From a virus: a stretch of 64,000 nt of DNA. Each line of letters begins with the position of its first letter. Position 1 is the first letter of the stretch. The DNA is taken from IMG/VR virus record IMGVR_UViG_3300048919_000048, positions 1-64,000 of that record. One strand, written 5' to 3'. The position numbers and the translations under genes were made by a program. This document shows, piece by piece, positions 5,936 through 20,260 of the stretch. The notes under the pieces were generated by a model that saw nothing but the letters and a program-made list of their open reading frames with translations, made no database searches and was not told the DNA's origin.

Positions 5936-6594
5936 GTATCTTCCCTCCGTGATTTTGTTTCCCACACTGGTAGACCTGAAGAGGCACACTTGAGTCTAAC
6001 CCACCGCCTGAAGAGGCAGACCTGTGCATAACTTCGGCGTCAGCCAAAATGGTTTACAATCCCGAATGTCGCCCAAAATGGCTGACAAGATTTCCTGATT
6101 TCTCCCCACATTGTCAAGACCTTTCTGAAGAGGCGCACCACCCCGTCCGGGAGGCCCTCTCCCGCCGGGATAAATCCGTTATACCTGTTCCCACAGAGAC
6201 GTACCCGTCTGTATTCCCACATTGCCCAAATATCAAGGGAGCCGGAGAGGCTCACCTGTAAGGCGCTGTGCCCTCTTTTTATGTCAAAATACCCTCCCGC
6301 CAAAATTTTTAGGACGCGATCAGGGGTGGTCCTTCTTGCCCAGAAACCAGAAAAATATCCCAGCGTATGGATATAGCTGCCAGGCATGGCGATCAGGGGG
6401 TGGGGAGGGGCCTCGTTATTTTCCCCAAATATCCTTATGAATCAATGAGTTAGCCCTTCTCAGCCTTTGCCCAATCGAACCGGGGAGGTCCCCGCTTTAC
6501 GTGATCAACTCCACAAAATGTCTACCATCTTGCCCATCTTTACACTTGTCCTATTGACTCATCGGTCTGACTGTGCATCACGCCGCTGATACCC

Positions 6595-6622
6595 ATTTAA
6601 CATAATACACCTTATACGCACC
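6595..6622 (-). other. dif: dif-like XerC/XerD recombination core site
   Basis: Minus strand GGTGCGTATAA-GGTGTA-TTATGTTAAAT vs E. coli dif GGTGCGCATAA-TGTATA-TTATGTTAAAT: XerD arm 11/11, XerC arm 10/11, 6-bp spacer. Confidence 0.85.
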
Positions 6623-6625
6623 CGG

Positions 6626-6874
6626 GATAATGATAATCATTCCCAACACGTGGAGAGGCCCGCCAGCACTGGCCCAGATGAGAATGGGTCTCACTCACCT
6701 TGTGGCATGATAATGAGAATGATTCGCACTCGCCCTTTGAGAATGGTTCGCGGATGAGAACCATTATCGTTTACGCAAAAACAAAATAAAAATTATTTTT
6801 CTATTGACACGAAGAGCGAATTTTGCCAGGCAATTACGCCATATCTGTACACTTTGCGAACGATAATCATTACC
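6626..6874. promoter_or_regulatory. cluster of Fur-box-like operators (left array)
   Basis: GATAATGATAATCATTCCC at 6626 (17/19 to the Fur consensus); further boxes at 6679, 6709 (15/19), 6738, 6755, 6856 (15/19). Confidence 0.75.
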
Positions 6875-7067
6875 ATCTGAGGCCCTCCGGCCCGTACCGG
6901 GTCCGCCTCTTCAGACATCTTTATGCAGATAAGATGCATTCTCATTCATAATCTTTTTGCAGATAAGACTTGACTTTGTGCGTTTACGCACTAGATTACA
7001 GCCCGGTTTACCGGGTGAAAGTAAGCGTAATAAACTCTTGACTTTCAAGGCTAAAGCCTCAACAAAT

Positions 7068-7176
7068 GACCAATAGAAAACAGGTATAAGCGGTCATCCC
7101 TTGACCGTGGGAACGTGAGCAAAAACCGTTGCGAGTTAGCAACGGGGGTTGATCCGTTACCTGTTTTCTATTGGTC
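7068..7176. repeat. 19-bp perfect inverted repeat enclosing a nested hairpin
   Basis: GACCAATAGAAAACAGGTA (7068-7086) / TACCTGTTTTCTATTGGTC (7158-7176). Confidence 0.85.
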
Positions 7177-7266
7177 GCGCCTCCGGCGCGCCCTCCCTTG
7201 ATCCGTGGGAACGTAAAACCCGGCTTTTCTCAGAAGTCAATAAAAAGTTAAGTTATTGATAGTAAA

Positions 7267-7281
7267 TGAGGATCATTCTCG
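7267..7281. promoter_or_regulatory. Fur-box-like site
   Basis: 7-1-7 form TGAGGAT-C-ATTCTCG. Confidence 0.5.
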
Positions 7282-7588
7282 CATTATGCAGATAAATGAA
7301 TAAATAGTGTCAAGTTATGTAAAGAAAAGGTGAGTTAGTCAATTGTGGCCTGATACACGTTTGCAGATAGAAGTCAATAGGGTCTAAAACGCTCTGTAAG
7401 GCTCTATGCGGGCCGCTATTCTCAACCCTGGCTAGTGGGTTAGCGCTTCAGTTATTCAATTATGCGCTTTAAAGTGAATAAAATTAGATGTTGATTTCCA
7501 CAATTGGAGGTGATAAGGGAAAGGATCTAAGAGTTGGGGGAGTCGGACCGATACCGGGCCGGGCCTGCTGGCTTGCCACGTTTGGGAC

Positions 7589-7616
7589 AAAAGAAAAGCC
7601 CGCCGGGGTGGCGGGT
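7589..7616 (-). terminator. terminator closing the leftward island
   Basis: CCCGCC hairpin followed on the minus strand by TTTTCTTTT. Confidence 0.65.
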
Positions 7617-7620
7617 CTCT

Positions 7621-7869
7621 TCAGTTTAGGCAGGTAACCAGGGCGGGCAGTGATAGCGCCAGATCATAACGGTTTATTGATTTGCCACGATAGGCAAGGC
7701 GGGCCGTTGCCAGTGTAGCGCCAAAAACGTTTAAAAATGTTGTGACCATTTGATCGGGTCCAAGTACAGCGGACAAAATCCAATTGTTGACCGTATCGCC
7801 AGAAAAGGCAATGAGGACCGCTAAAGCGGCCCACAATGGTAGATTGATTTTAAAAAGGCGGTTCATCAT
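7621..7869 (-). CDS. small membrane protein
   Basis: 82 aa, hydrophobic segments; ATGA overlap. Confidence 0.65.
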   Translation of the reverse strand: MMNRLFKINLPLWAALAVLIAFSGDTVNNWILSAVLGPDQMVTTFLNVFGATLATARLAYRGKSINRYDLALSLPALVTCLN

Positions 7870-8240
7870 GCGCCGAAAGTGCGGGTGTGGTTGTTGTCTC
7901 GCTCAATCATCACCGCCAGGCGGATCAGTTGGTCAGTTGTATCCTTCAGACTGTCCGGCCAGGTTTTACCGTTCCAACAATCTAAGTTTGATTCGATGTA
8001 ACTTTCCAGCGCTTGATCCATGCTATCAAACATGTTTTCTTTCAGGCTTTCGGATGTCTCACACTGAAAAGCGTTTGCCACGCTGTTAATCAGCAAGCAA
8101 GCCAGGTGATCGGCGTTGCGCCAGTTTTTACGGATGTTTTCATCTTTCAGGTAGCCGATCAGGTTGACCTGTGCGCCAGTGGTGGAGGTTGCGATCACTT
8201 CGTAAGCTTTTTCGATTGCGTTGATAGCTGATTTGGACAT
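7866..8240 (-). CDS. hypothetical protein
   Basis: ATG 8240 after GGAGA; own promoter at 8284-8312. Confidence 0.75.
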   Translation of the reverse strand: MSKSAINAIEKAYEVIATSTTGAQVNLIGYLKDENIRKNWRNADHLACLLINSVANAFQCETSESLKENMFDSMDQALESYIESNLDCWNGKTWPDSLKDTTDQLIRLAVMIERDNNHTRTFGA

Positions 8241-8315
8241 TTTACGGTCTCCAGTGTTTTGGGTGTTTGTTGCTTGAGTGGGTATTATGGGGCCTTTCGG
8301 CCCCCTTGTCAACGA

Positions 8316-8687
8316 TTAATTTAAATCCAGGTTCAGGGCCAGATCCACCAGGGCGGCGATCTGCTGTTCGTTAGCGATGCGGCCCACAACCCAACGAATA
8401 TAAATTTTAATCAATAATTCTTTGTTGCTGGCAAAACCCGGATGGTTCAAAAGGTCTTTTTTGCGGAATTTGTCCTCAGTAGCGAGAGTCATCACGCCGC
8501 CTTTGTACTCAATGGAGATCTGTAAACCATTGTCAAAGGTCGCCATAAAATAGTTTTCAAAGGTAACAGTTTCAACGTGTAACTTTGCGCCGCCTACGTG
8601 CTGTTGCATTTCGAACGAACGATCATAACCGAAATGATTTGCTTGCTCATCGCGGATGTAGTAGCGGTTGAAGTTGGTCAGGTTCAT
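8316..8687 (-). CDS. hypothetical protein
   Basis: 123 aa; GAGGAG RBS. Confidence 0.75.
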   Translation of the reverse strand: MNLTNFNRYYIRDEQANHFGYDRSFEMQQHVGGAKLHVETVTFENYFMATFDNGLQISIEYKGGVMTLATEDKFRKKDLLNHPGFASNKELLIKIYIRWVVGRIANEQQIAALVDLALNLDLN

Positions 8688-9021
8688 TTTACTGTCTCCT
8701 CTTTGTGGGCCGTCGCGTCATTGCCGCCCTACGTGATAAATAATACCACAATGGCGGATCGATGCAATAGGGAGAATTGTAAAGTTTTGTCAACGTAAAC
8801 CCGGCTTTCAGCCCTTCAGGTCTAACATAAAATTTTCACGTTTGCAAGGGCAAAAAGTGCGAAAGTCCGATTTCGGGAGATCTATATTTTTATGATGTAG
8901 GATACCGGGTAAGGGGAAAACGGCTTAAAACGCGTTTTAGAGCGTTTGGCGGGCATGTACATTTATACAGTGGAGTGAAATAAATTTGACAACGGTTTGA
9001 AAGTATGTACTTGATTTGATT

Positions 9022-9041
9022 GGGAATGATAACCATTCTCA
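9022..9041. promoter_or_regulatory. Fur-box-like site
   Basis: GGGAATGATAACCATTCTC, 15/19; intergenic. Confidence 0.65.
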
Positions 9042-9077
9042 TTTGCCCAGCGCGGCCCAGGTCCGGTCCGCCTCCCT

Positions 9078-9107
9078 GAATAGCGGGCAGGTCCGGTGTT
9101 TGTCTCC
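9078..9107. repeat. 30-bp element, exact inverted copy of 19601-19630
   Basis: GAATAGCGGGCAGGTCCGGTGTTTGTCTCC. Confidence 0.9.
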
Positions 9108-9190
9108 CCCTGCATCAGGTGCCATCGCATGACATAAGAATAACAAAAAAGGGGCGAACAAGTCAACCCCTGGAAACACTGTTTATTTGA

Positions 9191-9532
9191 TCAGCACTTT
9201 GTTGCTGTTCGCTGGTGGTCTATGGCGATCCGTTTCTCTGCGATACCGTCCAGGGCTTCGGCTTCGTACCCATCGCAGCGAATGTAAAATAATGCGTTGT
9301 CAATCTCTTTTATCTTCTCCAGAAGATCGGCCCGGCGGGCTTCTAACAGGTCATCAAGGGATCGCAGGGCGGCGGGGATTGTCTCCCCGGTAGCCTCAAC
9401 ATAACCCCGGCCCGATCCTGGCAATGACCCGGCGGCGGTGGATGCCGTCCAGCGCCCACGGATTGACCAAAACACTTTAAAGCCGTTTCCGCTAAAAATG
9501 TGATTCTTTATGACGTGACAAAAGCGGATCAT
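9191..9532 (-). CDS. hypothetical protein
   Basis: 113 aa; ATGA overlap with upstream gene. Confidence 0.6.
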   Translation of the reverse strand: MIRFCHVIKNHIFSGNGFKVFWSIRGRWTASTAAGSLPGSGRGYVEATGETIPAALRSLDDLLEARRADLLEKIKEIDNALFYIRCDGYEAEALDGIAEKRIAIDHQRTATKC

Positions 9533-9723
9533 ATCTCACCCCCGATAAAGTCGGATCGGTCGCTGTCTCTCATGCGGTCGTTTAATTCCTTCAGGGTGGC
9601 GATCCCGTTTTCGGCATCTTTCGCCAGGCATGACCCGGCATAGGTTGGATCACTCCCCAGGCGCAAGCGGTGAAGGTAACGCAAGGCGGCTAACGTTTGG
9701 CGGATCTCGGATTCTGTGATCAT
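9529..9723 (-). CDS. hypothetical protein
   Basis: ATG 9723 after GAGGG. Confidence 0.6.
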   Translation of the reverse strand: MITESEIRQTLAALRYLHRLRLGSDPTYAGSCLAKDAENGIATLKELNDRMRDSDRSDFIGGEI

Positions 9724-9893
9724 GGTTCGGCCCTCGGATGGCTCATATTTACCCCGATGAATGGGAAGTGTGCCAGATCGCAAGGCTTCAGCGTTTCATG
9801 CCTTGCCCACATACCAGATCCACGGCGGAAAAGTACCCGGTTACGGCTTATGCGGTAAAAGTTCCCGTTTTCTAAATTCTGATACCAAATCAT
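9720..9893 (-). CDS. hypothetical protein (57 aa)
   Basis: GAGG RBS, first gene after promoter 9941; translated by hand. Confidence 0.5.
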   Translation of the reverse strand: MIWYQNLENGNFYRISRNRVLFRRGSGMWARHETLKPCDLAHFPFIGVNMSHPRAEP

Positions 9894-9965
9894 TCTCGTT
9901 TACCTCATTTGCGGGGAGATGTTCCCGGCCTATGTGAGACATTATCGGCCCTATTGCGCCAGGTG

Positions 9966-10427
9966 TCAACCCCGGATCATGAAAAATTTTATTTTGTGGT
10001 GCATACCGTAAAGCCAATCGTGAAAAGCCGGGCCGCGCTCATTAACGGTGTTATACGGCCCCCTGAGCGCTTTTTGATCCTGGTCTGTGGGTAGCCATTC
10101 CCGGCCCTCAATAACCATCATAAAACGCTCCAGATAGTACACATACGCCCCGCACTCAGTAAAGATCACCTTGTTTGCTCGGATGTATGGGATCAGATAG
10201 GTATCCCCCAGATCCCGGATCTTATTGTGGGCACTTTGCCCGTTGATGAATCGGCGGATGTGATACGGGTCGTTTATTGCCCGGTGAATGTTCACCAGGT
10301 AGTCACCCCGTAAGGCGTTGATGTCTCTTTTACGCCATAACGCCACACTTGCAGCAATATTCCGGCGGGCTTCAGCCTGCGCCGCCGGGGTCAGTTCGTC
10401 GTAATACTTCAGATCTGTAAGGTTCAT
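9966..10427 (-). CDS. hypothetical protein
   Basis: 153 aa; TAATG coupling; stop lies in the next -35 box. Confidence 0.7.
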   Translation of the reverse strand: MNLTDLKYYDELTPAAQAEARRNIAASVALWRKRDINALRGDYLVNIHRAINDPYHIRRFINGQSAHNKIRDLGDTYLIPYIRANKVIFTECGAYVYYLERFMMVIEGREWLPTDQDQKALRGPYNTVNERGPAFHDWLYGMHHKIKFFMIRG

Positions 10428-10819
10428 TATTCCACCTCAATAAACCCGGCATCGTTGATAAACAGATTTTTTGACCCGAAAGTCTGCGCCACGTCGTGAA
10501 GTTTGTCACCGATTGACCCAAGCCCGCGATCCCAGAATCCCACGCCGTGACCTTGACGGCTAAACCATAGATCCCGGCCTGCTTGGGTGTGATCATAGTC
10601 AACCCCCGCCAGCATTGCCCCTTTGAGTAACAGCGGCGCAACGTCCATAAAGCGGGCACAATCCATGCGGGAGGCGTCCAGCGCTTCAGCGCTTAACTCA
10701 TACCCGGCCAGGTTTTCGATCTCTTCACCGTCGCTATCGGTGGCAGTCTCTGCAAATAACATCGCCTCAATGTAACCAGCGATAAAAGCGTTTAAGTGTA
10801 AAGCGTTGAAAGTAGTCAT
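10427..10819 (-). CDS. conserved phage hypothetical protein
   Basis: AGRDLWFSRQGHGVGFWDR motif, recalled from many phage proteins of unknown function. Confidence 0.8.
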   Translation of the reverse strand: MTTFNALHLNAFIAGYIEAMLFAETATDSDGEEIENLAGYELSAEALDASRMDCARFMDVAPLLLKGAMLAGVDYDHTQAGRDLWFSRQGHGVGFWDRGLGSIGDKLHDVAQTFGSKNLFINDAGFIEVE

Positions 10820-10992
10820 TTTATTAGTATCCCATTTTTACACAGATTGCGGTTGCGGATGCGATTGCTACGAAAACAGATACCAGGAAGATTACGCTCA
10901 TTTTGTTTCTCTCTTTGTTTGTTGTGGTCTGTTGTGACCCGATGAAAAGAGTATAGCCCGTAACGCTTCCCGGCGTCAACTTTATTTTTAAA

Positions 10993-11352
10993 TTATTTTT
11001 GTGCCACTTCCAGCGCGGCCCGGCGGGCTTTTGCGTCATCGCGTAGCGCTTTCATCTCTTTGATAGTGTCGGCAATGGTGCGGCCCACGGCGCAAGCTAA
11101 AAGCCACACGTGCGGCCCTTTCAGGTCGTGATCTTTGTAAAGCCCTTGCGATGTTACAGTAAGCCCCAAGCGGGAAGCGGCCTTGTGATCCGGCATTTCA
11201 AAAATTTGTTTTACTTCTTTGAAGGTCAAACGTTTGAAGTTAAGCCCACGGATCACGGCAGTAGCGGCGCGGACAATTCCATCCAGTTCGTTTTTGCTGC
11301 ACTCGAACAGGGTGATTTTGTACATTGGTTCCCACGGGGTGTATTTGCTCAT
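10993..11352 (-). CDS. hypothetical protein
   Basis: 119 aa cassette gene with own promoter. Confidence 0.75.
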   Translation of the reverse strand: MSKYTPWEPMYKITLFECSKNELDGIVRAATAVIRGLNFKRLTFKEVKQIFEMPDHKAASRLGLTVTSQGLYKDHDLKGPHVWLLACAVGRTIADTIKEMKALRDDAKARRAALEVAQK

Positions 11353-11436
11353 TTTACGATCTCTCTTCTGTTTGTGGGCGGCGTTGTGTCGCCCTATGTG
11401 TTACATTATGGGGCCTAACGTCGGCCCCGTCAATAA

Positions 11437-11691
11437 TTATTTTGCACCAACCATAAAACAGGCGGATTCGAAAGCATTACGGGCGCGGCGTTCACCGTAG
11501 CGGATTTTTCCGAAACCAGTTTTTGACGTGCGGCCCGTTTGGATAATTTCGTAGCACTCCCCGCCGTTGTGGATAAGGGACACGATAAACAGTTCCGACA
11601 TCTTGCGAGCGATCACGCCTTGCGCCTCCAGCGGTGGCAATTTGTTAGACGGGGCCTTGCGGGTGAAAAGTGATTTGATGAATTTTAACAT
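11437..11691 (-). CDS. hypothetical protein
   Basis: cassette gene with own promoter. Confidence 0.7.
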   Translation of the reverse strand: MLKFIKSLFTRKAPSNKLPPLEAQGVIARKMSELFIVSLIHNGGECYEIIQTGRTSKTGFGKIRYGERRARNAFESACFMVGAK

Positions 11692-11762
11692 TTTGTGATT
11701 CTCTCTATTCGTTTGGTGTGGTGGTATTATGGGGCCTAAGCGGCCCCGGCGTCAACTACTTT

Positions 11763-11969
11763 TTATTTTATTTCTTCGTCGCCTTTCCACTGCGAATAGG
11801 TTTTAAAAGCTTCGTGTAAGTGTGGGGTAACTTCGGACAGCAGGACCGCGCCGCGATCACTTACAGCGGTCACCTGGTAGTGATCCGCACGGCGGGACGT
11901 GTCACCGCAAGCGGACAGGGTAACAGTAACATCAATCAGGCGGGACTTTTGCAGAATCATTGTAATCAT
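11763..11969 (-). CDS. hypothetical protein
   Basis: GAGGAG RBS; own promoter. Confidence 0.7.
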   Translation of the reverse strand: MITMILQKSRLIDVTVTLSACGDTSRRADHYQVTAVSDRGAVLLSEVTPHLHEAFKTYSQWKGDEEIK

Positions 11970-12029
11970 TTTACGATCTCCTCGTGTTGGTGTGGGGTCA
12001 TTATCGGCCCTTTCGGGCCGGGCGTCAAG

Positions 12030-12185
12030 CTAATTTTTACCAAATCGTAAATGTTTTTTCGCCATAGCGCGGGCCGTTGCTTTACTATGCCCCGCCTCCT
12101 GATAATAGCGGGTTAAGCGGTCCAAAGTTTCGCGGCGGTCCGCCTTGCTCGGGTAAGCGGTGATTAAGAGTTTATGCGGGTTCAT
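12030..12185 (-). CDS. hypothetical basic protein (51 aa)
   Basis: ATGA overlap; fills gap to next promoter; translated by hand. Confidence 0.5.
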   Translation of the reverse strand: MNPHKLLITAYPSKADRRETLDRLTRYYQEAGHSKATARAMAKKHLRFGKN

Positions 12186-12478
12186 AAGGTGGCCCCCGCC
12201 GGGATCGTGTCGTTTACCAGGGTGGCGATCGCCTCTTTGATGTAGTCCGCCGGAAGTGGGTCGCTTTTGCTCTGAATATAGCGCCGCCCGTTGTAAATGA
12301 CATCGTAAGAGATCACAAAGTCCGCGCCGTGGCGGTCAACGTTGATTTGCAGGCGGTTCGGCTCTTTGTCATCCATATGACGACAAATGATCTGCACGGT
12401 GCCCGCTACGTTGGACATTGACGCCACGACGTGATCAGCCACGCCGGACAGGATGAAAAGGGTGTTTGCTTTTTGCAT
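12182..12478 (-). CDS. hypothetical protein
   Basis: ATG 12478 after GAGG; own promoter. Confidence 0.7.
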   Translation of the reverse strand: MQKANTLFILSGVADHVVASMSNVAGTVQIICRHMDDKEPNRLQINVDRHGADFVISYDVIYNGRRYIQSKSDPLPADYIKEAIATLVNDTIPAGATL

Positions 12479-12541
12479 TTTTGTAGCCTCGTTTGTTTGT
12501 GTTCGGTCATTGTAAGCCGGGACGATGCCCGGCGTCAACAA

Positions 12542-12721
12542 TTATTTTGAATTTTTCGCCGGGAGTGGTTCCCGGAAATAGCGGCGGATCTGCGCTGCTG
12601 TTAGGCGGGCGTCAGCCTGCAATGACTTCAGCGGATAGGGGCGGTTGGCTATAAAGGTATGTTGACCGCAGCCATTGCCGATCACGATGTCAACTAGGGC
12701 GAAAAGTAAAGATGATTTCAT
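12542..12721 (-). CDS. hypothetical protein (59 aa)
   Basis: ATGA overlap; ends next to promoter 12509; translated by hand. Confidence 0.5.
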   Translation of the reverse strand: MKSSLLFALVDIVIGNGCGQHTFIANRPYPLKSLQADARLTAAQIRRYFREPLPAKNSK

Positions 12722-12960
12722 TTTGCAGCCCCTTCTAAGGTGATTTCAACAATTTTAGCTGTTGCTTGCTCTTCGGTGATTTCGACGGCCCCGATCACGT
12801 CGTGATCTGTCAGGTCGGACGGCTTAAAGCCGGGACGGTAAAGCCAGCCCTTTCGCCCATCGGGGAGACTGTTTGACCAGCGGTAGATCTTCGGATATTC
12901 CCCGGAGGTTTCAGAATCTTCTAAACGGTAAAGGTTGTTTGTAACAAAATAACGTGTCAT
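12718..12960 (-). CDS. hypothetical protein
   Basis: cassette gene with own promoter. Confidence 0.7.
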   Translation of the reverse strand: MTRYFVTNNLYRLEDSETSGEYPKIYRWSNSLPDGRKGWLYRPGFKPSDLTDHDVIGAVEITEEQATAKIVEITLEGAAK

Positions 12961-13028
12961 GTTTTTGGCCTCGTTTGCCTGTTTGGTATGTCTGACATTA
13001 TCGGCCCTTTCGGGCCGGGTGTCAACGT

Positions 13029-13388
13029 TTATTTTTCATTTTTCACACGATAGAAAATGCGATAGGCGCGGCGCTTGCCGGGGCCGTATTGTGTGGTTAT
13101 GTATTCCAGTTCATACCCAAGCAAGCCTAAGCGGTGAAGGGCGGCACTTGCGCCGTCATTGTGTGACTGTTCGCGGCGATAAGGGGAGGTTAAGATCTCC
13201 AGCTCATTGGCGGCGGCGTACCAGTTTAAAACGGTTTGTTCGTCGCCTGAGACAAGCGCGGCGCGGTATTTGTTGATTGTGTTCCCGTTGATATCACGGG
13301 AAAAATCGAAAGTCTCCAGCGTAAGGAATAGATCACCATTCACCAGGAGATCAGGACGGGCGGCGATTGCTTCAGCGTATGATTTCAT
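13029..13388 (-). CDS. hypothetical protein
   Basis: 119 aa; RDINGN motif; own promoter. Confidence 0.75.
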   Translation of the reverse strand: MKSYAEAIAARPDLLVNGDLFLTLETFDFSRDINGNTINKYRAALVSGDEQTVLNWYAAANELEILTSPYRREQSHNDGASAALHRLGLLGYELEYITTQYGPGKRRAYRIFYRVKNEK

Positions 13389-13464
13389 TTTATTGCCTCA
13401 TTCGGTGGCGTTTCGTTTGTCTATGCCGGAGATTATAACCCCGGCATAATTCAAGCGTCAACAA

Positions 13465-13686
13465 TTATTTTTCAACTACCAACTGATAGCCCGCTTCAAT
13501 GTTGGAAAACACGATCCGCCCGTCCTGGCGTTCACTCATAAGCACACAAGGCGATAACATACGCTCTTCAGCTTTACAATCAGCATAAGCGGCGCGGATG
13601 TCGCCTGGCTTTTTGTCTTCAGTGGTGAAAGTGTCATTGATAAACACGTTGCCAGATACCAGGGTAATAATTGCGAAAGTGATCAT
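13465..13686 (-). CDS. hypothetical protein
   Basis: cassette gene with own promoter. Confidence 0.7.
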   Translation of the reverse strand: MITFAIITLVSGNVFINDTFTTEDKKPGDIRAAYADCKAEERMLSPCVLMSERQDGRIVFSNIEAGYQLVVEK

Positions 13687-13756
13687 TTTGTGCCTCGTTT
13701 GGTGGTTTGCTTTCGTTTGTCTATGCCGTCATTGTAAGGGACGGCATAACCACACG

Positions 13757-13909
13757 TCAAGCGTTTTGTAGATAAAGTTTTGTGCCCCGTGGGAGGCGTG
13801 ATCCGTAACCTTCTCGATCACGTAGGCGCTTTCTTGCATCCTGTTCATCATAGCCGAAAACTTTAAGCGGGCCAGCCACACCGGGGATATTTACAAGATA
13901 ATGTTTCAT
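13757..13909 (-). CDS. hypothetical protein (50 aa)
   Basis: ATG 13909; own promoter. Confidence 0.65.
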   Translation of the reverse strand: MKHYLVNIPGVAGPLKVFGYDEQDARKRLRDREGYGSRLPRGTKLYLQNA

Positions 13910-13972
13910 TTGGTTGTCTCTTTTGTTTGGGTCTGTGGGTATTATGGGGCCTAACGCGGCCCCGGTCAAGAA

Positions 13973-14407
13973 TTATTTTTGATAATTTTTCATTCTTACG
14001 GCGTTGTGTTCGGCGGCTTTTACCCAAGCGCCGGGGATAGTGTCGGCGCGGCTTACGAATTCACCACAAAAGCGGGTAACATACAAGGCCCCGCAAGGAT
14101 CGCCGGAAAATTCACGGGTCACGGTGTAGCGCTTATCCTTTTTGATTGTGCGGATCACTTCCCCGAAAAGCTGATTGACAAGCGCGGTCCATTGTGTGCG
14201 GGCGGCGCCGATCTGGTCTTCAACAACCCATTCGATCCGGCCTACATCATCAAAATCGTGTGCCTTAACGTGAAACGCGCCGTGTTCCATGAAAAGCTGC
14301 ACCCGGATATTGTTGCCCGTGATCTTTGTGTCGATCTCTTGGACATAACCGCAAGCCAGCGCGTAAACGGATAAGCCTGCTTTGATACGGAAAATTGGGG
14401 AAGTCAT
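13973..14407 (-). CDS. hypothetical protein
   Basis: 144 aa; LSVYALACGY motif; own promoter. Confidence 0.75.
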   Translation of the reverse strand: MTSPIFRIKAGLSVYALACGYVQEIDTKITGNNIRVQLFMEHGAFHVKAHDFDDVGRIEWVVEDQIGAARTQWTALVNQLFGEVIRTIKKDKRYTVTREFSGDPCGALYVTRFCGEFVSRADTIPGAWVKAAEHNAVRMKNYQK

Positions 14408-14510
14408 AACGGTCTCTCTTCTGTTAGTGCGGCGCGGTGTGCGTCGGTATGTGGTAGATTATGGGGTAACCGGGGCCATAGGTCAAGCCCCGGAATGAAA
14501 ATATTTTAAA

Positions 14511-14750
14511 TTATTTCACGGTAACCCGGATCGCCTCAATCGTCGCCACGGTGGCCGGGTCAACAATCAGGGCCTGAGAGGTGGAGATCTTCACCCCTTC
14601 ACGCGCTGCAATGGCGGCTAATGACTTCGAGGTTATACGGTAGCCTTTGCCGTCCGTTACCAGGTAAAGGCAGGTAAAGCCCATCGGGCGACCTGCTAAC
14701 AGGCGGATAAATTCTGTCATGCTGTAAAGGTTTTGCATTGTGTACCCCAT
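14511..14750 (-). CDS. hypothetical protein
   Basis: 79 aa ORF; start may be 14738. Confidence 0.6.
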   Translation of the reverse strand: MGYTMQNLYSMTEFIRLLAGRPMGFTCLYLVTDGKGYRITSKSLAAIAAREGVKISTSQALIVDPATVATIEAIRVTVK

Positions 14751-14755
14751 AGATC

Positions 14756-14781
14756 AAAAATAAGGGGCCTATGCGGCCCCC
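14756..14781 (-). terminator. terminator-like hairpin
   Basis: AGGGG(G)CC-GCATA-GGCCCCT then TATTTTT on minus strand. Confidence 0.55.
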
Positions 14782-14825
14782 TGTGCGGTTTAAACGGTTT
14801 GGCCTGGTGTTTCCATGCCGGGCGC

Positions 14826-14960
14826 TTACTCCCAGTTATAGCGCGTTTTACGACGCTGTTGTTTGTTAGCTTTGTCACGTTGCAGGCGCTCGCCTGCTTC
14901 AGCGTATGACAGGCGGGCCGGGCGGGTCTGTTTGTCACGGTTGATATTAGTCTGAATCAT
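14826..14960 (-). CDS. small Arg/Lys-rich protein (44 aa)
   Basis: ATGA overlap, GAGG RBS; MIQTNINRDKQ...QQRRKTRYNWE translated by hand. Confidence 0.5.
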   Translation of the reverse strand: MIQTNINRDKQTRPARLSYAEAGERLQRDKANKQQRRKTRYNWE

Positions 14961-15274
14961 TTGTAACCTCTTCTCTGTTTGCGTTTATCGTGCATATATT
15001 GGCGCTCATCGATCACGTCGTGGATCTCCTCAATATCCGGGGAGAATTTTTCGTAAGTGATCACGGCCCCCAACTGTTGGCGGTAGTTAATAGCCCCGAT
15101 GGCGTCAATCTCTTGCATCGGCCCATAATCGCGGGACGTTTCGATCTCCCCGTTGTACTCATATTCAAAGTAGCCAAACATTCTATTTTTACGCCTCCAG
15201 CGGCGTCGGTTGTAAAGTTTGGCGGCGTAGCCAACCGCCACCACTAAACCCAAGATGACCAGAATCGTGATCAT
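14957..15274 (-). CDS. membrane-anchored hypothetical protein
   Basis: N-terminal TM helix followed by RRRWRRK. Confidence 0.7.
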   Translation of the reverse strand: MITILVILGLVVAVGYAAKLYNRRRWRRKNRMFGYFEYEYNGEIETSRDYGPMQEIDAIGAINYRQQLGAVITYEKFSPDIEEIHDVIDERQYMHDKRKQRRGYK

Positions 15275-15636
15275 TCAATAACCCCATACTTACGGCCCAA
15301 GATGACCAGCGAACCCGCCAAACGTGTCCAATATTGATCTAACTCCCATTCCTCCTGGCCTGCTGTAGTGTGGAAGTTAATGTAACCCCAGTCGGTTAAA
15401 AGATCAATGATCTCGTGATTCATGAAAGCATGATTGATTGATGTCGGCAGTCCCCGGAGATATTCAGTGATGGCGCGTTGCATACCCAGGCGGCTAACTT
15501 CGTGCCCATATTCAGACTGAAGGGTATCAAAGAAAAATTTAAGCTTTTCGGACTCGGTGCCTTCAAAGTCGATAACAGATAAAACATATTCACGAACATA
15601 ACGAGTAGCGGCGGTGTTTTTGGTGGTAGTAGTCAT
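15271..15636 (-). CDS. conserved phage hypothetical protein
   Basis: 121 aa; EYLRGLP motif; own promoter. Confidence 0.75.
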   Translation of the reverse strand: MTTTTKNTAATRYVREYVLSVIDFEGTESEKLKFFFDTLQSEYGHEVSRLGMQRAITEYLRGLPTSINHAFMNHEIIDLLTDWGYINFHTTAGQEEWELDQYWTRLAGSLVILGRKYGVIE

Positions 15637-15720
15637 TTTACGGTCTCTCTTCTGTTAGTGCGGCGCGGTGTGCGTCGCTTCGGTGGTATTATAGGCCGGG
15701 AGTTTTCCCGGCGTCAACAA

Positions 15721-15930
15721 TTATTTTAAACTATTTGCGAGGCGGTCGATCCCAGCGCTTAGTTTAGTGTGCTGGGTAGCCTCCAGTAAAACGGATACCT
15801 GCATCAAAATATTTTCAGCCTGTTCTGGGTACAACTCAACAACCAGATTAAAGGCGGCGCGGGAACCGTCACGGATCGCCACCTGGTAAGCCTCATGTTT
15901 AACGTCGTTTACTTGCTGTTCGTTGATCAT
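15721..15930 (-). CDS. hypothetical protein
   Basis: cassette gene with own promoter. Confidence 0.7.
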   Translation of the reverse strand: MINEQQVNDVKHEAYQVAIRDGSRAAFNLVVELYPEQAENILMQVSVLLEATQHTKLSAGIDRLANSLK

Positions 15931-15998
15931 GGTGTGGATCTCTTTTCTGTTGGTGTGCGGGTATTATGGGGCCTAACCCGGCCCCGTGTCAACCACAA

Positions 15999-16379
15999 TT
16001 ATAAATCTTTTTTGCGGCTTACGTCGTACACGTTTTCAGTGTAGACTACCCCGAGATCCGCCGCCGCCTGGCAAGCATAAACCATTTTGCGCCACTTTGC
16101 CGGGGCATCCTTCACCGCCTCGATCATCGCACTCAGGGCGGTTTGTTCAAATCCGCGCTCATATCCATAAGCATAGCCAACATAGGCTAGGTCAATCCAG
16201 ATGTCCCCGCACTTATTCCCGTATTGGTTAGCGCCTAAACGGTCAGCCACTTCAACGGATACCAGCGCCGCCACGCTTGCGCTGTGGTAAGTATTCCCGG
16301 CACTACGTTGGAACCAACGTTTACCAGTTACGGAAATTTCTTTGATCTCGTTAGCGTTTACAGTGTTGATGATATTCAT
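15999..16379 (-). CDS. hypothetical protein
   Basis: 126 aa; WFQRSAGNTYHS and YGY motifs; own promoter. Confidence 0.75.
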   Translation of the reverse strand: MNIINTVNANEIKEISVTGKRWFQRSAGNTYHSASVAALVSVEVADRLGANQYGNKCGDIWIDLAYVGYAYGYERGFEQTALSAMIEAVKDAPAKWRKMVYACQAAADLGVVYTENVYDVSRKKDL

Positions 16380-16457
16380 CGTTTACTATCCTTTCGGTTT
16401 GGTTGTTTGCTTTCGCTTGCCTATGCCGGGGATTGTATACCCCGGCAGAAACCAGCG

Positions 16458-16688
16458 TCAAGCGGATTTAATGATATTATCAAAAAATTCCTGTGGGCGG
16501 GTCTCGCAGCCTTTTCCGGCCCAAGCGTTAACATGCCTTGAGGTGGTTGCGCTGTGCTTTGTGGCGGTTACCAGGTAGCCTTCACCGGGCAGGTATGCCG
16601 CTACCGGGGTGTTGTAAGAGAAGAAAACCTGTGAGCCGTCCGCCAGGGTAATCATGGTTTGGTTTGCGCCGATAGTAGTCAGATTCAT
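16458..16688 (-). CDS. conserved phage hypothetical protein
   Basis: FSYNTPVA...SATTSRH motif; own promoter. Confidence 0.75.
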   Translation of the reverse strand: MNLTTIGANQTMITLADGSQVFFSYNTPVAAYLPGEGYLVTATKHSATTSRHVNAWAGKGCETRPQEFFDNIIKSA

Positions 16689-16769
16689 TTTGTAAGCCTC
16701 GTTTGCTTGTCTGTTTGGTATGTCTGGTATTATGGGGCCTAACCCGGCCCCGGTCAACAACTATTTTAA

Positions 16770-17015
16770 TTAATTTGCAAAATATGGAGCCATTGCTGAG
16801 GCGGTAGGGCTTACGGTTATCTGAGAATCAATCAGATATTCCACGTTGTCAATTCTTACAGTGTCGATTGAGTGATTACTGAAAGGTTTACTTTTTACCT
16901 TTCTAACTACCGTCCGGCGGCGGTTACCTTTCATCTCTTCGAGTTGAATCCAGGCATATCCTTTATCATTCATGAAAATTTCATTATGATGGGTAATTGT
17001 GGAAAGCTTTTTCAT
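16770..17015 (-). CDS. hypothetical protein
   Basis: ATG 17015; AT-richer than neighbours. Confidence 0.65.
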   Translation of the reverse strand: MKKLSTITHHNEIFMNDKGYAWIQLEEMKGNRRRTVVRKVKSKPFSNHSIDTVRIDNVEYLIDSQITVSPTASAMAPYFAN

Positions 17016-17114
17016 ACTGTTACCTTTTGGTTTTGGCGGCGGGTTATTCCGTCGCCCTATGTGATACATTATGGGGGTAACGCCGCCGGGCGTCAACCCC
17101 CTAAACGAAAATAA

Positions 17115-17465
17115 TTAATAAAAAGATCCGCCGGGGCTTACAGGATCGATCCGCCCGCCATTGTCCAGGATGCAACGGATCACGGCGTCGCCCATTGCTT
17201 TACATTCTGCCCAGGTTGGCGCTAGAATTTCGATGTAAGGCCAGCAGGCCGCGCCACCTGGAAAGTGGGACGTCTCCGCCTCTTTGCTTGTCTCCGCGCC
17301 TTCGGCGGCCCGGCTAACAAGATCATTAAGCTGGTCCCATTCCGGGTACGGGTGTTTTTCGTCGCTGTCATCGCTTAACCATTCCCCGGCCAGCGGGTGG
17401 CAATCGTAAGATATTGAGCAACGGAAAAGCGGCGTGATCTGTACAGTGGGGATCTGTTTGGTCAT
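17115..17465 (-). CDS. hypothetical protein
   Basis: GGAG RBS, ATG 17465. Confidence 0.65.
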   Translation of the reverse strand: MTKQIPTVQITPLFRCSISYDCHPLAGEWLSDDSDEKHPYPEWDQLNDLVSRAAEGAETSKEAETSHFPGGAACWPYIEILAPTWAECKAMGDAVIRCILDNGGRIDPVSPGGSFY

Positions 17466-17511
17466 GGTACTGACTCCACACGAAAGGCCCCCGCCGGGGG
17501 CCTGCAATTGG

Positions 17512-17733
17512 TTAGCGGTGAGTGTTACGGGAAAGTGTGCCGCCGTTATGCTTTGCGCCAACGTGCCAGCCGTCCGCCTTTTTGGTTGGCGTTGTGGGGG
17601 TCACGCCAGCGGCGCGTAAACGGTTAGCAACGGCGCGGGCATCGTCACGGGTACGATAAGCGGGCAGGGTGGCAACCGCCGCCAGATTAACAGAGGAAAC
17701 GCCACGTGATTTTTTATAGATTACTTTTGCCAT
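17512..17733 (-). CDS. small basic hypothetical protein
   Basis: ATG 17733; own promoter; followed by palindrome at 17485-17503. Confidence 0.7.
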   Translation of the reverse strand: MAKVIYKKSRGVSSVNLAAVATLPAYRTRDDARAVANRLRAAGVTPTTPTKKADGWHVGAKHNGGTLSRNTHR

Positions 17734-17814
17734 TTTCTTTACTCTCTGATTTTGCCGGGCACCATTTGCCGGGCTTGTTTGTAGTATGGGGCCAGGTGGC
17801 CCCGGTGTCAACAA

Positions 17815-18252
17815 TTATTTTACGATAGTTACAGATTTATATTCCTGCTCTGCACTCATGCCGCCGCTACTGTTGGCGCGGAGGATCTCCAGGTGGGCAG
17901 GCATCCAGCCAGTAGAGCGACCCACAATAAAGCGGCGCTTTTCGCCGTACATGGTGATCACTTCTACCCGGCGACCCTCCAGGCCTTTCAATTGCTTAGT
18001 GAGACCAGCAAGACAGCGCTTGCCCGTGCGGGCATGATAGGCACAACCAGCGGAGATCATATCCTGGCAGGCTTTATAATGCTTTTTTGTGCCCTTGCGA
18101 TATGGGAGATCCTCAACTGTTGCACCTTCAGATTCTAACCATTGTTTAACCTTACGGGCGTTTCTGTCCAGGACTTCGAACCCGTAGCAGGTAAAGCCGT
18201 TGCCACACTTCAGGACATACAGTTTTTGCTCTTTGTTGATTGAATGTAACAT
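17815..18252 (-). CDS. conserved phage hypothetical protein
   Basis: 145 aa; VGRSTGWMPAHLE motif; own promoter. Confidence 0.75.
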   Translation of the reverse strand: MLHSINKEQKLYVLKCGNGFTCYGFEVLDRNARKVKQWLESEGATVEDLPYRKGTKKHYKACQDMISAGCAYHARTGKRCLAGLTKQLKGLEGRRVEVITMYGEKRRFIVGRSTGWMPAHLEILRANSSGGMSAEQEYKSVTIVK

Positions 18253-18337
18253 GATAACGATCTCTCTTTTGTTTATGCGGCGCGGTGTGCGTCGCTATGT
18301 GGTGAATTATGGGGCCTATCGTCGGCCCCGTCAAGCA

Positions 18338-18583
18338 TTATTTTTTAAAAGGCCAATTATTTTCTTCAGCCCAAGAAACGGATAAAACTTCACCTTTTAC
18401 CAGCTCCCACTCCCAGAAAAGCCCTTTGTGCTCAATGTAAGCATACGTTACCAAAGTTCCGTTCTGGTCAACATCCGAAAGGTGGTGGATCTTCCCGTAT
18501 CGGCGTACATCTTTGTAAGCCTCGTCTAATGAAATATTATTTTTATACTTTACGGCGGCGATCAATTGGTTTTTCGTAAACAT
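18338..18583 (-). CDS. hypothetical protein
   Basis: GGAG RBS; own promoter. Confidence 0.7.
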   Translation of the reverse strand: MFTKNQLIAAVKYKNNISLDEAYKDVRRYGKIHHLSDVDQNGTLVTYAYIEHKGLFWEWELVKGEVLSVSWAEENNWPFKK

Positions 18584-18650
18584 TTTACTGACTCCGTTTG
18601 TTGGTGTGGTTGTATGATAAGCCGGGACGGTTCCCGGCGTCAACAACATT

Positions 18651-18983
18651 TTAAATCTTTTTGTAATTTAATTTTGTGCTTTCCCGGTACGGCTTGCCCG
18701 TGGTCATATCGTAAATGACATAATGCCCGGCGCGGTCCGCCTGTTGCAGGGTAACGGCGCGATCCTCACACTGTTTGACGCCACCAATATAAACCGGGTC
18801 CAAATCGGACAGCTTAACAGCGCCCACACCAGGGAGGATCTTAAACACGGCATAGCCACGATCCACACTATCGAACCCGGCGAACCATTCCCGGCGGTTC
18901 TCTTCTTTATTGTAGCGGCAGGCGCGGATCTGCCCGGCGTGGGCGGCGGCGTTACCTTCAATAAAATATTTCGTCTGTTGCAT
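18651..18983 (-). CDS. hypothetical protein
   Basis: AGGAG RBS; own promoter. Confidence 0.7.
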   Translation of the reverse strand: MQQTKYFIEGNAAAHAGQIRACRYNKEENRREWFAGFDSVDRGYAVFKILPGVGAVKLSDLDPVYIGGVKQCEDRAVTLQQADRAGHYVIYDMTTGKPYRESTKLNYKKI

Positions 18984-19040
18984 CGGTCGATCTCCTTGTT
19001 TGTGAGCGCTTATTGTGGGGCCTTGTAGGCCCCGTGTCAA

Positions 19041-19301
19041 CTAATACCAGCCTCTTTGATGTTGTAGGACGCCAAACCAATAAGAAATTAACATAATCCC
19101 GTCAAGGTCCTCCGGCTTGCCAGATAAACGGCCTTGCGACGATTCCCAAGCGCCACGGCGGCGGGGTGTATTGTGAGCGCAATAGTCTACCGTGTGCAAA
19201 TCCAATACCTGATCCACGGTCAAGCCCGTGGCGCTGGCTACTTGGTGAACCGTGCCGCCTTGCCAGCCTAGCGCCTTCATTAAATATTCTGTATTGGTCA
19301 T
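19041..19301 (-). CDS. hypothetical protein, possible HTH
   Basis: GGAGG RBS; TVHQVASATGLTVDQV is HTH-like. Confidence 0.7.
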   Translation of the reverse strand: MTNTEYLMKALGWQGGTVHQVASATGLTVDQVLDLHTVDYCAHNTPRRRGAWESSQGRLSGKPEDLDGIMLISYWFGVLQHQRGWY

Positions 19302-19383
19302 TTTACGGCCTCCTTTGTTGGTGTGCCTGCATTGTGGCCCGGCTTGCCTGGCAGGTCAACAAAAATTTATTTTATTTTGGGTA

Positions 19384-19412
19384 TTGACGCCCGGCGGGCC
19401 AGGGTCCATAAT
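19384..19412 (+). promoter_or_regulatory. rightward sigma70 promoter with no downstream ORF
   Basis: TTGACG-N17-CATAAT, divergent from 19331-19359. Confidence 0.7.
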
Positions 19413-19545
19413 GATCACATACAGGAAAGGACACGCCACCCCACGGCGAAAAGGCGGGGCTAACGTACCGGGCACCGGGGCCAGGTCGGAAGGTGGATCG
19501 CCGGGAGTTCGTCTAAAATAGTTTCGTAAAGAAACGTAAAGACGC

Positions 19546-19574
19546 TTGCAACCGGGGCGGGCCGGGGCTATATT
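19546..19574 (+). promoter_or_regulatory. second rightward promoter
   Basis: TTGCAA-N17-TATATT. Confidence 0.55.
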
Positions 19575-19600
19575 ATACACATAGCGGGGAGAATTGACCC

Positions 19601-19630
19601 GGAGACAAACACCGGACCTGCCCGCTATTC
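19601..19630. repeat. 30-bp element, exact inverted copy of 9078-9107
   Basis: GGAGACAAACACCGGACCTGCCCGCTATTC. Confidence 0.9.
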
Positions 19631-19636
19631 TGGAGA

Positions 19637-19747
19637 TGAGAATGATTCTCATTCAACAACCTGAATGCGAATGATTATCAGTTGCATTTGCAAATGAGAA
19701 CGATTCTCATTCCGCCCCGGGCGAGACGAGAATGATAACGATTTGCA
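19637..19747. promoter_or_regulatory. cluster of four Fur-box-like operators (right array)
   Basis: TGAGAATGATTCTCA 19637, TGCGAATGATTATCA 19666, TGAGAACGATTCTCA 19695, TGATAACGATTTGCA 19733. Confidence 0.75.
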
Positions 19748-19778
19748 TTTCGATTTTCACCTCTGTATAGATTTTGAG

Positions 19779-19955
19779 AATACGTTTTCGAAAATGAAAT
19801 TTCGATCGAGACCCCGGCGCGAGACCTGTACCTGTACCGAGAATACGATCTGGAAATTGAAAAACCGATCGAGACCCCGATTGCTGTACCGAGACCCGGG
19901 TCCGAGTAACCCGAGAGAAAATACGATTTGGAAAATGAAAAGTCGATCGAGACCC
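19779..19955 (+). repeat. three 36-bp direct repeats AATAC-N20-GATCGAGACCC
   Basis: copies start 19779, 19842, 19920; fourth copy at 30869-30904. Confidence 0.85.
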
Positions 19956-20260
19956 TCAAATTTCTTGATGGTTCATAACTCCAGTATTGTAACGTTTATG
20001 TACCATTAGTGGTGCATAAGCCCCCGAATGTAACATTTATGGTGCAACATGTGCTGATCCCGTGTGGGGTGTGCTGGTACATTGGCGAATAAATCTGAAA
20101 AAGAAATCGGATCTGAGTTCCCGCCCGGCGGGCCATCCCAAATCAAATCTCAAATTGAATTTCGAATTGAAATCTGGTTTCAAATATCCTTGCAAATATC
20201 AAGGGTAAATATCAAATCGAAAATCGACCTGAAAACTGAGCCGTCCTTGGCTCACAAATA

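Follow-up and report, generated by a model that had tools for sequence, protein, structure and literature searches.

Introduction

Fur boxes are well-known components of iron-regulated promoters in bacteria, and the promoters of ryhB, fecI, entC/fepB, mntH, exbB and fhuF belong to the classical set repressed by the iron sensor Fur. This protein is present in thousands of molecules per cell, and the Fur titration assay (FURTA) shows that the titration principle works. A Fur box is also known in the stx1 promoter on a temperate phage. Accumulation of regulator-binding sites beside a recombination core is exemplified by cer and psi, where the 28-bp Xer core is flanked, next to its XerC arm, by accessory DNA of about 180 bp bound by ArgR or ArcA and by PepA. 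As for other phage-borne elements, Fur boxes were found upstream of sitABCD on lambdoid coliphages (PMC6969025), while the direct repeats and palindromes of T5 Repeat Region 3 were described with no mention of Fur (Davison, bioRxiv 10.1101/866236). Here, we consider Fur-box-like palindromes in the first 64 kb (positions 1 to 64,000, hereafter the window) of the IMG/VR record IMGVR_UViG_3300048919_000048, the 151,943-bp genome of a virulent rV5-like phage, which DNA similarity places in the genus Certrevirus (Vequintavirinae) together with CR3, CR8, PBES 02, phiTE, CB7, P7_Pc and KaOmega. The palindromes lie in gene-free stretches (hubs) within and around a block of small early genes, their positions and spacings are conserved in the genus, and, judging by their sequence, they are likely operators of host Fur.

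Results

The plus-strand genes stop at about 6440, and about 31 small minus-strand genes, each headed by a promoter of the sigma-70 type with A-rich DNA upstream, follow one another from 19301 down to 7621; the counterpart of this block in CB7 was named as the likely early region (PMC7344957). Three stretches free of genes, 6441-7620, 8688-9190 and 19302-20260, make up 2,642 bp in total, that is 1.7% of the genome. Taking as Fur-box-like any site that matches either the 19-bp consensus GATAATGATAATCATTATC or the 7-1-7 arrangement TGATAATnATTATCA, we recovered all 12 sites listed in the preliminary description of this DNA, each at its own coordinate. The left array consists of boxes L1 (6625-6645), L2 (6679-6693), L3 (6708-6728), L4 (6738-6752), L5 (6755-6769) and L6 (6855-6875), M1 (7267-7281) and M2 (9021-9041) are solitary, and the right array is composed of R1 (19637-19651), R2 (19666-19680), R3 (19695-19709) and R4 (19727-19747). 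As 19-mers, L1 matches in 17/19 positions (at 6626), and L3, L6 and M2 in 15/19 each (at 6709, 6856 and 9022); at least 15/19 is reached nowhere else in the genome, several further sites being at 13-14/19 (R4, read as a 19-mer at 19728, has 14/19). Sites at 6679, 6738, 6755, 7267, 19666, 19695 and 19733 are of the 7-1-7 type. The site at 19637 is indeed a perfect palindrome, TGAGAATGATTCTCA, and the spacing between 19637, 19666 and 19695 is exactly 29 bp, both as originally noticed.

Scanning of the whole genome against shuffled controls, proposed in the same description, was performed with the pattern TGAKAAYNRTTMTCA. With no more than one mismatch allowed, eight matches (three exact and five with a single mismatch) were found, all within 6631-19695, which is far above the background estimated from 30 dinucleotide shuffles (mean 0.43, maximum 2). 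All eight fall into the three non-coding stretches, the chance probability of which is about 8e-15. Relaxation to two mismatches gave 21 genome matches including 14 in 6625-19733, and the seven located elsewhere correspond to the background level (5.2), in line with the preliminary description, in which none was noticed in the remaining 44 kb. The boxes are intergenic, as had been proposed, being overlapped only by two mechanically predicted and probably spurious open reading frames (ORFs), 8963-9166 (-) and 19356-19652 (-), the latter dismissed as a gene on account of its junk-like composition and the lack of a ribosome-binding site. When viral contigs were scanned with the pattern, only four loci were returned.

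Several properties of these sites go beyond simple resemblance to the consensus. When applied to E. coli K-12, the pattern matches the chromosome 38 times against 6 times for the reversed control. Seven of the 38, chosen as known members of the Fur regulon, were compared with the annotation, and they precede ryhB, fecI, entC (within the fepB-entC gap), mntH, exbB and fhuF (two sites) by 8-117 bp. The 15-mer at 9027 within M2 coincides letter for letter with the E. coli fecI Fur box, and GAGAAT, the commonest half-site variant in the phage, is present in the ryhB, fecI, exbB and mntH operators. In four sites (6625/6631, 6708/6714, 6855/6861 and 9021/9027, that is L1, L3, L6 and M2) an overlapping copy is shifted by 6 bp; such doubles are built in the same way as the 19-bp Fur box and would be unusual in an ordinary operator for a dimer. 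Outside the searched 15-mer, A occupies position -1 in 17 and position -2 in 16 of 24 half-sites, in agreement with both the extended Fur consensus and the E. coli sites. Thus the term "Fur-box-like", used in the preliminary description, gains in substance from the consensus match, the specificity of the pattern in K-12, the shifted doubles, the flanking bases and the conservation described below. The identity of the sites as Fur boxes, on which four mutually independent tests concur, is well supported at the level of sequence, and their binding by Fur is likely.

Relatives were included in the proposed scan, and it was performed for the whole records of P7_Pc, phiTE, CR8, KaOmega, CB7 and POP15 using the same pattern with a reversed control. 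All matches with at most one mismatch are confined to the early region (about 13 kb), and the control gave none; in total, eight whole records of relatives have all their matches in this region. The boxes recur at the same relative positions in all six phages, with spacings of 48, 35, 24 and 17 bp in the left array and 29, 29 and 37-38 bp in the right one; only L6 is peculiar to the genome studied here, being absent from this place in the six relatives. The mean pairwise identity of boxes exceeds that of spacers both on the left (0.905 vs 0.681, p = 5e-8) and on the right (0.847 vs 0.629, p = 6e-5), and in CB7 the boxes are retained between diverged spacers. This difference indicates purifying selection on the boxes. 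An internal box, TGTGAATCATTCTCA, observed in five relatives, was not counted since it falls in the first codons of a gene absent here.

The right hub is organized, in the rightward direction away from the early genes, as promoter P_R1, an invariant element, a GTAAA repeat, promoter P_R2, a hairpin, the four boxes and iteron-like repeats. P_R1 (19384-19412, +; TTGACG-17-CATAAT) is a rightward promoter of the early type. Downstream of it, a non-coding element of about 100 nt (19425-19520, +) hardly varies among 282 records of Vequintavirinae and Stephanstirmvirinae; it contains no conserved ORF, has no counterpart in Rfam and shows a single covarying pair, and it could function either as DNA or as a small RNA. 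Just upstream of the -35 hexamer of P_R2, with its center about 48 bp upstream of the start of this promoter, lies the direct repeat GTAAA-N5-GTAAA (19526-19540, +), both pentamers of which are invariant in 16 phages of the two subfamilies while the 5-nt spacer varies. This repeat is CpxR-box-like; in E. coli K-12 the same pattern has a match between cpxR and cpxP, and P_R2 may be activated by CpxR in answer to envelope stress. P_R2 itself (19546-19574, +; TTGCAA-17-TATATT) keeps its hexamers across the two subfamilies, its spacer being variable, and reads into a leader hairpin, ATAGCGGG...CCCGCTAT (19576-19633, +), which is followed by R1-R4; the distance from the hairpin to the first box is free of indels among the 16 phages.

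The hairpin holds a 33-nt element which recurs with 97% identity on the opposite strand at 9107-9075, where it again stands between a promoter and a box. The promoter of this second unit (TTGACT-18-TATTCT, 9166-9137) and the leader element, which together occupy 9075-9166 (-), read into M2. All promoters mentioned are consensus matches only. Signs of a structured RNA were also looked for: an Rfam search gave no match at the gathering score and only chance-level matches at E<=10 (e.g., PrrF with 16.9 bits vs a gathering score of 90), the fold of 19419-19640 has z = -1.1, and alignment folds of the right-hub RNA candidates contain only one and two covarying pairs. After the right array, three 39-nt iteron-like direct repeats (19776-19955, +), each with GATCGAGACCC, are succeeded by GATTT-rich DNA (20100-20260), and the same iterons are found in Seunavirus and Mydovirus. 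This region looks like an origin, without support from GC skew, which gives no origin signal along the genome and tracks gene orientation only.

The left array adjoins an element of another kind. A dif/pdif-like core, GGTGCGTATAA-GGTGTA-TTATGTTAAAT (6595-6622, -), arranged as XerC arm, spacer and XerD arm, coincides over its 28 bp with E. coli dif in 11/11 positions of the XerD arm and 10/11 of the XerC arm, and the pattern used to find it also detects dif in E. coli. The core is 100% conserved in seven Certrevirus genomes although the DNA upstream diverges, 26 nt of it are identical to small Acinetobacter plasmids, and it is also present in Henunavirus phages of Erwinia; the phi92-like and T5-like genomes searched lack it. 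In Certrevirus the array begins 3 bp past the XerC arm and spans from +4 to +175 on the XerC side, whereas in Henunavirus no array abuts the core and the nearest Fur-like box is about 155 bp off. Further to the right, M1 lies directly after the -10-like hexamer CATAAT (7289-7284) of a candidate minus-strand promoter with the -35 element TTGACA (7313-7308), within a segment (7137-7420) that is nearly invariant across the genus. The whole non-coding stretch 6920-7420 is more conserved than the adjacent genes; it contains four copies of TGCAGATAA (at about 6925, 6957, 7285 and 7361), two copies of AGAAGTCAATA and a perfect 19-bp inverted repeat (7068-7086/7158-7176) around a minus-strand terminator (7145-7116).

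Outside the genus, the right-hub module is matched by 282 phage records of two subfamilies, including Seunavirus, Mydovirus and the phi92/phAPEC8 group (Stephanstirmvirinae), with one to five boxes kept. In T5-like phages only the box array matches (75-83% identity over 54-82 bp), and the order of boxes there, GAGAAT/GCGAAT/GAGAA, is the same as here. The T5 boxes fall inside the annotated "injection stop signal" (iss), and the calculated shear point of T5 first-step transfer, 9618, is inside the array (Davison, bioRxiv 10.1101/866236). A T5-style injection stop was nevertheless rejected for Certrevirus: the genomes of CB7 and phiTE are circularly permuted (PMC7344957), so that the arrays have no fixed position in a terminal repeat, which rules out such a role in the genus and argues against arrest as their general function. 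In the genome analyzed here, the 127-bp overlap of the contig ends is an assembly overlap and not a terminal repeat. Other occurrences were also registered: further strict Fur-like sites in the first-step-transfer DNA of T5-like phages, e.g., the perfect TGATAATGATTATCA at T5 233-247 and those around the dmp gene (5'-deoxyribonucleotidase) of Salmonella phage S131, and a match to boxes L2-L3 in the 121-kb Vibrio phage VB_Vhy_SJ1.

One of the 31 ORFs of the early island (7621-19301) encodes a homologue of T4 Gp30.7 (Pfam PF06919, E = 1.6e-42), and all others belong to PHROG families of unknown function.

Discussion

The phage probably recruits Fur of its host to the hubs around its early genes, judging by the sequence and placement of the boxes. 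As for the purpose, the boxes keep fixed positions and spacings beside other conserved cis elements, which favors action in cis, and the repetition of the promoter-leader-box unit together with the box at a -10-like hexamer makes a cis-acting gate the best-supported function. We therefore put forward, tentatively and as a reading that falls short of being probable, that host Fur binds the boxes and acts on the conserved promoter-leader units, thereby making an early non-coding step iron-responsive, with titration as a by-product. According to this scheme, the palindromes would represent operators for the host iron sensor borne on phage DNA, occupied by holo-Fur both as single sites and as cooperative arrays, and operating within the conserved hubs of non-coding DNA at the borders of the early genes. 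Two units would be controlled in this way: one leading from P_R2 at 19546 through the hairpin to boxes 19637-19747, and the other from the promoter at 9166-9137 through the leader element to the box at 9041-9021. Under plentiful iron, bound Fur would block or attenuate the transcripts after initiation (roadblock), while scarce iron would release them, the responsive step being, for example, transcription that runs on into the iteron region or the last early genes; any titration of Fur as phage genomes replicate would be incidental. The sites, their Fur-like sequence, their conservation and their placement are shown here, whereas Fur binding, the roadblock and a role for the released transcripts are inferred. 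The anatomy is best fitted by that part of the preliminary description where an early step was suggested to respond to iron: there are two promoter-leader-box units, and one box follows a -10-like hexamer.

Several circumstances weigh against this scheme. Classical Fur operators overlap the -35/-10 elements or the transcription start, and for most of the boxes no such overlap was found; as was stated before us, most sites are off promoters of protein genes, and 7267 alone adjoins a -10-like hexamer. Even there, the candidate promoter has a 19-bp spacer. The left array adjoins a promoter-like element with no recognizable -10 and thus no convincing promoter, and the right array is displaced to about +56 to +165 from the start of P_R2. 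The shared order of boxes with the T5-like array may mean that the array was passed on as a module instead of having converged independently on a host factor. Finally, at position 4 of the half-site the phage boxes prefer G over T (16 G : 7 T), whereas T predominates in the E. coli matches (23 G : 49 T; Fisher p=0.003), and this bias could mean either that the boxes share an ancestor or that they are bound by another protein.

The latter option, namely that the boxes are operators of another protein preferring G at position 4, be it an early phage protein or another host regulator, appears rather unlikely. It draws on the significant preference for TGAGAAT to TGATAAT in comparison with E. coli sites, on the array module apparently shared by descent between unrelated phage groups, and on the large proportion of early proteins with no known function. 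Yet the best sites are classical GATAAT boxes (17/19), and the GAGAAT half-site is found in true Fur operators. Among host regulators, the consensuses of RcsAB, SlmA, ArgR and LacI-type proteins fail on spacing, and these together with IHF and Lrp were rejected on half-site spacing or sequence. Search for a phage-encoded candidate gave no Fur homologue in the phage, no DNA-binding Pfam domain, helix-turn-helix included, among the 31 early-island ORFs, and no protein common to the first 32 kb of the phage and the T5-like pre-early regions; these negatives, which are absence of evidence only, favor a host factor.

It is likewise doubtful that Fur serves here as an architectural protein, forming a filament or a wrapped complex which organizes an origin in the right hub, an accessory arm of the Xer site in the left hub, or a boundary of the early block, although much of the surrounding anatomy would suit it. 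Arrays of four to six sites, 17-48 bp apart, are set in hubs rich in other cis elements, few boxes overlap promoters, the dif/pdif-like core is only 3 bp from L1, iterons follow the right array within a hub that contains AT-rich DNA, DnaA boxes lie beside the T5-like array, and the left array occupies the XerC side as accessory sequences of cer and psi do. However, the isolated single boxes at 7267 and 9027 are conserved as well, the Xer-like core of Henunavirus does without an abutting array, and an origin finds no sign in GC skew. Nor is Fur known to act as an accessory protein at a Xer site.

The original proposal that the phage is primarily a Fur sponge, in which about 12-14 sites per genome copy titrate the repressor and derepress iron uptake of the host, is the weakest and hardly probable. 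Its arithmetic is feasible late in infection, as 53 strict sites per Mb are carried by the phage vs 8 per Mb by E. coli, and some 100-200 genome copies would bring thousands of sites, a number comparable with Fur abundance; iron uptake might moreover be of use to Certreviruses, which encode an iron-dependent ribonucleotide reductase (PMC7344957). Nonetheless, a sponge gains no specific support from these data and needs no fixed position, spacing or juxtaposition with promoters and hairpins, all of which are conserved and point to cis action, nor would it be expected to have its sites confined to 1.7% of the genome instead of being spread, to retain only one or two boxes in some relatives (PVP-SE1, Henunavirus), or to make sense in T5, where early degradation of host DNA (Davison, bioRxiv 10.1101/866236) renders derepression of host genes pointless.

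A broader combination can be imagined only as a long shot: in this genus the Fur array on the left would serve as accessory arm to a dif/pdif-like XerCD site carried by the phage, coupling dimer resolution of the circularized permuted genome to Fur and iron, while in the right hub a CpxR-type site, a promoter and a Fur array would gate an origin or a regulatory RNA, the hubs thus being platforms for host regulators in large virulent enterobacterial phages. With respect to the cis-acting gate preferred above, as to any function that involves Fur, its binding would mean that these phages sense or make use of host iron status from the outset of infection, which bears on how they perform where iron is scarce, as in plant tissue, roots or infected hosts. 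It also makes Fur a concrete candidate host factor for the long-unexplained repeats in the T5 injection-stop region.

Comparison with known systems

Literature searches on Fur boxes in phage genomes or Vequintavirinae, and on titration of Fur during infection by phages, gave nothing relevant; no Fur-box array is described for Vequintavirinae or for T5 iss in the papers searched, and conserved Fur-box arrays in gene-free early hubs of virulent phages (Certrevirus, other Vequintavirinae, phi92-like and T5-like) are undescribed in the literature searched. Their nearest counterparts differ in what they share with the locus. Temperate phages also carry sites for host Fur on their genomes, but these are single operators of cargo protein genes, while the phage under study is virulent and has arrays in non-coding DNA. 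With cer and psi the left hub shares a 28-bp XerC/XerD core and about 150 bp of (here predicted) regulator-site DNA on the XerC side; the sites are, however, Fur-like and not ArgR- or ArcA-like, and in Henunavirus the core has no array directly beside it. The palindromes and DRC repeats of T5 iss Repeat Region 3 are similar in the boxes themselves, in box order, in location at the edge of the earliest-expressed genes and in the presence of other adjoining repeats, but the T5 array resides in a fixed terminal repeat beside DnaA boxes, whereas Certrevirus genomes are circularly permuted. The chromosomal Fur operators of Enterobacterales have in common with the phage boxes the consensus including flanks, the doubles shifted by 6 bp, one 15-mer identical to the fecI box and clustering of the type found at ryhB, fecI, entC/fepB and fhuF. 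What distinguishes the phage boxes from these operators is their occurrence on a virulent phage, in gene-free hubs, mostly off the -35/-10 elements, with a bias to GAGAAT and in arrays spaced by 17-48 bp.

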